Positions 518-4,294 of a stretch of 4,294 nt of DNA are shown here, piece by piece. The stretch's first letter is position 1. Every line of letters begins with the position of its first letter. Below the pieces are notes generated by a model that was not told where the DNA came from, did no database searches, and saw nothing but the letters and a program-made list of their open reading frames with translations. Made by a program: the position numbers and the translations under genes. The stretch comes from a virus (Duplodnaviria > Heunggongvirae > Uroviricota > Caudoviricetes). The stretch spans positions 1 through 4,294 of the IMG/VR virus record IMGVR_UViG_2534681675_000010; one strand, written 5' to 3'.

Positions 518-730
518 TCACAGAGCAGACGGTGTATCATTCTTTGTTACAGTTAACTGACGGGCACATTTTATGTCTGCTGCCAGCCTCCGGCGACAGG
601 CTTCAATAACCCATGCCGAAAAGTTGCCGGAGCCTTTATGCTCAAGGGCGATATTGATCTGCTCAATCATGTGATTGGGAAAACGGATGTTACGGGTTGT
701 TGTTTTGCTGGTTTTGTTCTTCGATGACAT
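518..730 (-). CDS. Small hypothetical protein (70 aa), possible ribbon-helix-helix DNA-binding fold; resembles DUF3950 (YlcI/YnfO-like) proteins found next to Nu1 homologs in E. coli cryptic prophages
   Basis: Minus-strand ORF with ATG start (complement of 728-730) and TGA stop (complement of 518-520). The segment RNIRFPNHMIEQINIALEH looks like an RHH beta-strand followed by a helix. The family assignment is recalled, not searched. Sits just upstream of cos on the opposite strand, with an intrinsic terminator downstream. Confidence 0.55.
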   Translation of the reverse strand: MSSKNKTSKTTTRNIRFPNHMIEQINIALEHKGSGNFSAWVIEACRRRLAADIKCARQLTVTKNDTPSAL

Positions 731-894: not shown

Positions 895-929
895 TTTTCG
901 GGTCCTTTCTGGCGATCCGGCCTGTTACG
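895..929. other. cosQ-like region immediately upstream of cosN (prophage right-end sequence)
   Basis: GGTCCTTTCTGGCGATCCGGCCTGTTACG closely resembles the last bases of the phage lambda genome as I recall them (GGTCCTTTCCGGCGATCCGACAGGTTACG), ending in GTTACG just before the cohesive end. Confidence 0.6.
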
Positions 930-941
930 GGGCGGCGACCT
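930..941. other. cos: cosN cohesive-end site (12-nt lambda-type cohesive end GGGCGGCGACCT)
   Basis: Exact match to the lambda left cohesive end GGGCGGCGACCT, followed by CGCGGGTTTTCGCTATTTA as at the lambda left end. Small-terminase gene starts about 215 bp downstream, as in lambda. Confidence 0.88.
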
Positions 942-979
942 CGCGGGTTTTCGCTATTTACGAGTTTTTTTGAGGTGAT

Positions 980-1113
980 GGTTGTTGTTTTATCGTTTGA
1001 TATATCTACTTGATAAGTAATAAGAAAGAAAAATAAACACAACAACCTGATGATCTTTCTTATACGAAAAAGCATGTAAAATCAGAGGGTTTTACAAAAA
1101 ACGTGGTTGTTGT
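980..1113. repeat. cosB-like region with three copies of GGTTGTTGT (direct 980-988, inverted 1039-1047, direct 1105-1113); candidate R3/R2/R1 small-terminase binding sites
   Basis: The 9-mer occurs at 980-988 (+), as its reverse complement ACAACAACC at 1039-1047, and at 1105-1113 (+). Spacing is about 60 bp and orientation is direct-inverted-direct, the same as lambda R3-R2-R1, but the motif differs from lambda CGTTTCC-type R sites. Flanks extend the similarity (GGTTGTTGTTTTAT versus GGTTGTTGTGTTTAT). Confidence 0.6.
990..1015. promoter_or_regulatory. Candidate IHF-binding (I1-like) site between the first and second cosB repeats
   Basis: AT-rich segment with two partial matches to the IHF consensus WATCAANNNNTTR on the minus strand (TTGATA at 997-1002 and 1010-1015). 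Position between R3-like and R2-like repeats mirrors lambda I1. Matches are imperfect. Confidence 0.3.
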
Positions 1114-1146
1114 ATTGCTTTTTTGCCGGTGGTTTATGGAGGGGCT

Positions 1147-1624
1147 GTGGCCTTTTTATTGAATAAAAGCGACATGGCCTCCTCCATCGGTATCTCAGTA
1201 CAGGCATTTGATAAATGGGGTGTTCCTCCTGTTGAGCGCAGGGGGAGAGAGGTTTTCTATGACGTTAAAACTGTACTGGAGATAGATCGCGAGCGACGTC
1301 AACAAAACCAGAAATCTTCAGGTGGTGAAAATGATCTTGAGGAAAGGCTACTTCAGGCCAGGGTTAACCTGACGGAAGAACAGGCTATTGCTCAGCGGTT
1401 AAAAAACCAGGTTGCAGAGCATAAGGTGATTGATACAGCTTTCTCTATTTTTGCCCTGTCCCGGTTATCCGGAGAACTGGCATCTGTTTTGGACAGTATT
1501 CCGCTTTCGATGCAAAGAAAATTCCCTGAATTGACAGGCAGACAATTGGCTTATCTAAAAGAGCTGGTTGCGAAGGGGGCTAATAAATGCGTTGAGTCCG
1601 CTGAAAAAATGAAGGAATTTGCGG

Positions 1625-1653
<29 letters not shown>
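1147..1653 (+). CDS. nu1: Terminase small subunit (Nu1-like; DNA-recognition subunit), divergent from lambda Nu1
   Basis: C-terminal half clearly homologous to lambda Nu1 (DTAFSIFALSRLSGELASVLDSIPLSMQRKFPEL versus lambda ETAFCTFVLSRIAGEIASILDGLPLSVQRRFPEL). N-terminus aligns with the Nu1 winged-HTH (LNKSDMASSIGISVQAFDKWGVPPV versus VNKKQLADIFGASIRTIQNWQEQGMPV). Start is uncertain: GTG 1147 follows a GGAGGGG Shine-Dalgarno (1138-1144) and keeps the HTH helix 1, first ATG is 1174, and the ORF track begins at TTG 1123. Stop TAA 1651-1653. Confidence 0.85.

Positions 1654-4294
<2,641 letters not shown>

Follow-up and report, generated by a model that had tools for sequence, protein, structure and literature searches.

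A 9-bp word, GGTTGTTGT, occurs three times, in direct, inverted and direct orientation, between the cohesive end and the small-terminase gene in the window (by which we mean the whole analysed stretch of 4,294 bp, IMG/VR record IMGVR_UViG_2534681675_000010). This raises the question whether the repeats are the sites at which the terminase recognises the DNA to be packaged and, if so, whether the specificity they provide is a new one. Our answer to the first part is that the region 942-1146 is, with a probability of about 0.9, the cosB of a lambdoid Escherichia coli prophage with packaging specificity of the N15/Monarch type, the copies of GGTTGTTGT being the R3, R2 and R1 sites for the winged helix-turn-helix (wHTH) domain of the small terminase TerS. 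As to the second part, GGTTGTTGT forms the core of a TerS site that has already been published and validated genetically, and the arrangement with three sites is the Monarch type, likewise published.

The sequence-only reading of this DNA had described three copies of the 9-mer in these orientations, starting at +51, +110 and +176 from the cohesive end, and exact matches are indeed located at these positions (Table 1), all of them between cosN and the start of the small-terminase gene, which is placed identically in RefSeq. A lambda-like cos is characterised by the cosQ heptamer GGGTCCT and a cosN 12-mer similar to that of lambda, and the window contains both. The 7-bp cosQ is highly conserved, its position and role being those given in the lambda literature (PMC4669245), and was kept in nearly all the aligned relatives of the window; the cohesive end GGGCGGCGACCT is found also in lambda-type prophages, namely the one denoted here L109 and DLP12 of E. 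coli K-12. On the other side of the repeats, a gpA-type large terminase (TerL) follows TerS, and after it come gpW and the first part of the portal gene.

Table 1. Features of the packaging region (positions in the window; distances with a plus sign are counted from the cohesive end).
Feature	Positions	Strand	Remarks
cosQ (GGGTCCT), packaging-termination subsite	900-906	+	30 to 24 bp left of the cohesive end; putative function
cosN cohesive end GGGCGGCGACCT	930-941	+	Identical to lambda
Packaging-specificity cassette, 738 bp	964-1701	+	Right cosN-cosB spacer, cosB, whole TerS and the first ~26 codons of TerL
R3, predicted primary TerS site	980-988	+	Exact GGTTGTTGT at +51; extended GATGGTTGTTGTTTTAT, about 977-993
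I1, candidate IHF site TATCAAGTAGATA	1003-1015	-	12/13 match to WATCAANNNNTTR; adjoined by an A/T-rich tract, 1016-1035
R2, predicted inverted TerS site	1039-1047	-	Exact inverted copy; 59 bp from R3
R1, predicted direct TerS site	1105-1113	+	Exact copy; TerS start 42 bp on
TerS, small terminase, Nu1 family	1147-1653	+	168 aa; Pfam Phage_Nu1 (PF07471), 1.7e-21; same CDS in RefSeq
Predicted TerS recognition helix	about 1192-1224	+	Within the N-terminal ~43 aa, N15-type winged-HTH domain
TerL, large terminase, gpA family	1625-3550	+	Pfam GpA_ATPase and GpA_nuclease; start per RefSeq

An architectural model is provided by cosB of lambda itself, which is preceded by cosQ and cosN identical to those of the window and consists of R3 at about +50, an inverted R2 about 60 bp from R3, an IHF site between the two, and a direct R1. 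With the lambda spacings counted on a lambda-type prophage cosB, the distance from R3 to R2 is 59 bp in the window and about 61 bp in lambda, while that from R2 to R1 is 66 bp against about 41 bp, and TerS starts at +218 instead of +191. The claim that the layout is the same as in lambda therefore holds for the intervals from cosN to R3 and from R3 to R2, but not for the interval from R2 to R1. The recognition word is different as well, the lambda R core being CGTTTCC and that of the window GGTTGTTGT; the motif was thus rightly called unrelated to the lambda core, and it turned out to be an N15-type word. gpNu1 of lambda belongs to the Nu1 family and has a wHTH DNA-binding domain (DBD) like TerS of the window, to which it is 37% identical, mostly outside this domain. 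As a whole, the reading of the region as a cosB with a non-lambda recognition sequence in the R3-I1-R2-R1 layout agrees with the order, orientation and position of the sites and with the presence of a Nu1-family TerS downstream of them.

A comparison with the R sites of phage 21 had also been proposed, and it shows that the window is not of the 21 type. The phage 21 cos record (M23775.1) contains the repeats CGTGTCGG, CATGTCGG (inverted) and CATGTCGG, i.e. the tripartite architecture and cosN are common to both, whereas the repeats are unlike those of the window and gp1 of phage 21 is only 26% identical to the TerS of the window. The DNA of phage 21 is also not packaged by the N15-specific terminase (PMC4669245). 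Immediately before the start codon of gene 1 the phage 21 record carries a tandem duplication, two copies of GGGTTGTTTTCATG (L113:176-202, M23775.1); it yields two one-mismatch hits to our 9-mer, a connection with the N15-type site being improbable.

As for N15, its R3 was defined by block mutations as GAGGTTGTTGTT at bp 48-59 (Feiss et al., 2015, PMC4669245), and in the N15 DNA we found this sequence at 48-59 and, hence, GGTTGTTGT at bp 50-58. The block mutants m1 and m2 (GAGGTT to TGTAGG and GTTGTT to TGTTGT) lowered the yield about 7- and 100-fold, respectively (PMC4669245). The window reads GATGGTTGTTGT at +48 to +59 and contains the 9-mer core of N15 R3 unchanged, offset by 1 bp (+51 to +59) and at the same distance from the cohesive end. 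In other respects the two cosBs differ. In N15 a single site lies upstream, there is no IHF site, and the inverted site rR2 is located inside gene 1, 200 bp downstream. The window, with its three upstream sites and the candidate I1, lacks rR2: the best inverted match within TerS +100 to +220 has 3 mismatches, and no copy of GGTTGTTGT with one mismatch or fewer occurs inside the TerS gene of the window. The simple N15-type cosB, with a single upstream R3 and an inverted rR2, was accordingly ruled out for the window. Moreover, the N15 TerS starts at bp 89, the C-terminal halves of the two TerS proteins have diverged, and cosN of N15 differs from that of the window (and of lambda) at bp 9 and 12.

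The full set of features is found in the Monarch group of prophages, which combine the R sequence and recognition helix of N15 with a three-site cosB containing an IHF site (Feiss et al., 2015, PMC4669245). Compared feature by feature with the published description of this group, the window shows no demonstrable difference. In both, the R sequence is of the N15 type and the TerS helix is the same as in N15, R2 is the inverted one of three R sites, rR2 is missing, and cosQ and cosN resemble those of lambda; between R3 and R2, where the Monarch cosB has its IHF site, the window has a candidate IHF-like one. The Monarch sequence itself is reportedly carried in the 2015 paper of Feiss et al. in Virology (482:260). 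That the sites could instead constitute a new packaging specificity, distinct from those of lambda, 21 and N15, is suggested by the dissimilarity of the motif to the R cores of lambda (CGTTTCC) and phage 21 (CATGTCGG), and by megablast of positions 880-1660 against deposited phages, which matched the cosQ/cosN part only and retrieved no phage with this cosB at high identity. We nevertheless regard this as improbable, since the 9-mer is contained in the published N15 R3, the helix is identical to that of N15 gp1, and the Monarch group with this very layout has already been described (PMC4669245). The recognition sequence is thus different from that of lambda, as had been claimed, but it is not new; in view of its identity to N15 R3 and of the published Monarch layout, the original finding is correct but already known. 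The specificity concerned differs from the lambda and phage 21 specificities, although the N15-specific terminase can package lambda DNA (PMC4669245).

The protein side of the N15/Monarch assignment is provided by TerS. Its closest characterised counterpart is N15 gp1, with an overall identity of 49% and with 36 of 43 residues (84%) matching in the N-terminal domain, where residues 15-26, GISVQAFDKWGV, are the same in both proteins. Among 16 TerS homologues with 35-80% overall identity (from Escherichia, Pluralibacter, Trabulsiella, Erwinia, Aeromonas, Oceanimonas, Halomonas and Pseudomonas), the segment G15-ISVQAFDKW-24 is invariant, as is V26, and G25 is replaced by R in two. A phmmer search of PDB with the full TerS of the window gave no match, and the profile of the 16 homologues was needed to reach the structures of the lambda TerS DBD (6HN7_B, 5e-7; 1J9I, 4.5e-3; 7LW0). 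In the alignment of this profile with the solved structures, the invariant segment falls onto lambda's alpha-2 recognition helix. The single-sequence AlphaFold2 model of TerS was weak (pLDDT 58) but had the expected order beta-alpha-alpha-beta-beta-alpha, i.e. beta-alpha1-alpha2-wing-alpha3. The co-occurrence of an invariant helix and an invariant DNA word across genera is what a cognate pair predicts, and at the level of sequence the TerS helix and GGTTGTTGT would represent such a pair.

The DNA side was followed over 105 loci with relatives of the window TerS (38-99% identity), retrieved from GTDB genomes and IMG/VR. Nearly all of these loci, from Escherichia to Pseudomonas, have GGTTGTTGT, exact or with one mismatch, immediately before TerS. 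Forty-one unique tripartite cosBs could be distinguished, in which the order of the R sites is always +/-/+, the distance from R3 to R2 is 59 bp without exception, the 9-mers are invariant or differ by one base, and R1 precedes the TerS start codon by 41-42 bp. The distance from R2 to R1, in turn, falls into two classes, 78 bp (30 loci) and 66 bp (11 loci, the class of the window); the R2-R1 spacer of the latter is 12 bp shorter, a little over one helical turn, and in the alignment the difference is a block gap after window position ~1062. The constant R3-R2 distance, set against the two R2-R1 classes, is consistent with tight geometric constraints on the R3-I1-R2 unit, the position of R1 being less constrained. 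Given the R2-R1 spacing of 66 or 78 bp versus about 41 bp in lambda, R1 may not work as it does there. In the alignment the three 9-mers stand out as conserved islands where the overall identity of cosB to that of the window drops to 60-80%.

An AT-rich possible IHF site had been noted between the first two repeats. An IHF-like core is conserved there, but the 12/13 match as such does not distinguish it, the count of IHF consensus matches being not significant alone (9 observed against 4.7 expected). The case for I1 as a candidate is made because its position is conserved and because lambda has an IHF site in the analogous place: TTGATAA lies exactly 21 nt past R3 in 40 of the 41 unique tripartite cosBs, within a conserved block that reads TTGATAA(G)TAA, while the neighbouring bases vary.

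A two-site variant was observed in Pluralibacter gergoviae and its IMG/VR relatives (L003, L047-L051), with R3 (AGTTGTTGT) and R2 (GGTTGTTAT), each with one mismatch, about 160 to 100 bp upstream of TerS and with cosN altered to GGGCGACGTCCG. These loci contain no recognisable R1 and no TTGATAA core; their TerS is still 79-82% identical to that of the window.

Inverted copies so close to a start codon might also act at the level of RNA or single-stranded DNA, for instance as a leader hairpin controlling the translation of TerS on the late transcript. The predicted fold does pair R3 with R2, and R1 is situated 42 nt before the start codon; however, the z-score of the fold is only -1.78, with 10 of 200 shuffled sequences folding at least as well, there is no Rfam match, and no compensatory changes were seen in the relatives, the 9-mer itself being invariant. 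Furthermore, many relatives have one upstream site and are unable to form such a pair locally, and the single site of N15 is required for the packaging of DNA (PMC4669245). We therefore consider a structural role of the repeats in RNA or single-stranded DNA very unlikely in comparison with binding of TerS to them.

Still less probable is that the repeats arose by chance, or are members of some repeat family widespread in the host or in phages, and have nothing to do with packaging. The 205-bp interval from cosN to TerS is expected to contain 0.002-0.006 exact copies of GGTTGTTGT, the Poisson probability of at least three being about 1e-9 to 4e-8, and the 40.8-kb prophage of which the window is a part has no exact copies beyond the four of the window. 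These counts speak against chance (P about 1e-8) and a common repeat family, and so do the positions kept across the 41 distinct cosBs. Over the 105 related loci, the 330 bp upstream of TerS contain GGTTGTTGT at 52 times the density found elsewhere, and all 43 copies outside this region lie either inside ylcI or inside TerS at the position of rR2 (in one locus, L011, the TerS-internal copy is at +139 and direct, not inverted). What could be adduced in favour of chance is the fourth exact copy in the window, outside cosB, which the sequence-only reading had not mentioned. It is located at 695-703 (+), 235 bp left of cosN, inside ylcI/ynfO (DUF3950; 518-730, minus strand), where it corresponds to Thr-Thr-Thr codons. 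This copy is present in all the ylcI homologues adjoining N15-type cosBs, and the same 9-mer occurs in identical or divergent ylcI beside lambda-type cosBs (in L109 and in K-12 DLP12, where ylcI is beside nohD). The fourth copy is, then, a coding coincidence that belongs to ylcI and not to this cosB. Its interpretation as an upstream TerS site similar to R4 of lambda was ruled out, as it travels with ylcI beside lambda-type cosBs.

That the sites are targets not of TerS but of another protein (a regulator of the host or the prophage, for example, or the neighbouring DUF3950/YlcI, whose gene lies just upstream and carries the same 9-mer) can be practically dismissed, since an identical ylcI is also found beside lambda-type and other cosBs without the motif, and the motif co-occurs with the N15-type TerS helix in genera with no ylcI detected beside TerS. 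A tblastn search for ylcI homologues gave matches from the window and IMG/VR loci only.

Positions 1-963 and 1702-4216 of the window are 99.9% and 98.6% identical, respectively, to the L109 prophage, which has a lambda cosB (CGTTTCC) and a lambda Nu1, while 964-1701 gave no alignment with it. TerL is of the lambda type beyond its first ~26 codons, the mosaic boundary being at 1702. In E. coli N96 itself, the ylcI-cosQ-cosN left flank recurs in a second prophage (L108:3913-4100, NZ_CM169999.1), where it adjoins a third cassette, with the cosB repeats CATGTCCGG / CCGGACATG arranged as +,-,(-/+) and a TerS whose N-terminus (VATQTEVARHLSLTDRQLRRLQK...) is unrelated to TerS of lambda, 21 or N15. 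This cassette might be Gifsy-1-like; its assignment to the phage 21 type was ruled out, the TerS N-terminus being unrelated to gp1 of phage 21 (M23775.1). On the grounds of these natural swaps within matching flanks, we conclude that cosB, TerS and about 26 codons of TerL form one exchangeable cassette. Its limits agree with the published functions of the TerS termini, of which the N-terminus binds cosB and the C-terminus binds the N-terminus of TerL (PMC9026076).

A complete lambdoid prophage (40.8 kb) of E. coli N96 contains the window with 100% identity. In this prophage an IS66 element (tnpA, tnpB, tnpC) interrupts the tape-measure gene (L002:30577-35851), and even with an intact packaging module this copy would probably fail in tail assembly; it may no longer make infective particles. 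It also contains a tRNA cluster (Ile, one unassigned, Arg; L002:15865-16118) with a DNA methyltransferase gene upstream and lysis genes downstream. A tRNA cluster in this place, between the methyltransferase and lysis genes, occurs in many EHEC-type lambdoid prophages.

By analogy with lambda, the N15/Monarch-type cosB could operate as follows. A bend introduced by IHF at the conserved TTGATAA core, which separates R3 from R2, would bring these two mutually inverted sites, 59 bp apart, face to face for docking of a dimer of the TerS DBD. The bound TerS would then anchor TerL, which would nick the DNA at cosN and start packaging, R1 being presumably accessory. Here we infer the binding of TerS at all three sites, the binding of IHF and the docking onto a bent hairpin; R2, R1 and I1 are putative sites assigned from their sequence. 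As to its origin, the block 964-1701 would have been recombined as a self-contained specificity cassette into a packaging and head region of the lambda type.

The same recognition pair occurs also in a simpler arrangement. Pseudomonas phages F10 (L111:52-60, 252-260) and JBD68 (L112:50-58, 250-258) have an exact GGTTGTTGT and an exact inverted rR2; their R3 is at +52 and +50, respectively, from the deposited genome end, and rR2 is 200 bp downstream, inside TerS. The simple R3-plus-rR2 form was found as well in prophages of Halomonas, Aeromonas, Oceanimonas and Erwinia (L006-L027), the distance from R3 to rR2 being 200-201 bp in most of the simple-form loci and 204-211 bp in four. In inverted form the rR2 9-mer, ACAACAACC, fits the conserved Lys-Gln-Gln-Pro stretch of the TerS alignment, and the almost fixed distance that it keeps within coding DNA suggests selection acting on rR2. 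According to the published proposal, unequal crossing-over in a Monarch-like ancestor gave rise to N15. We can only tentatively put forward another scenario, which we hold to be possible though rather doubtful, that the pairing of GGTTGTTGT with ISVQAFDKW is far wider than the enteric prophages reported to have it, with the simple form ancestral and the tripartite one a secondary, enteric elaboration towards lambda. If true, this would reverse the published proposal and would mean that rR2 is functionally important rather than dispensable.

What is mildly new here is the breadth of the recognition pair, including the isolated phages F10 and JBD68, and the existence of two R2-R1 spacing classes. 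As for the organism, the N15/Monarch specificity can be assigned to this prophage and to about 22 of 5426 complete E. coli genomes, and such an assignment predicts which helper phages, cosmids or PICI-like elements the terminase can or cannot package. The window itself is also a clean instance of natural exchange, a 738-bp specificity cassette having been swapped into identical flanks.
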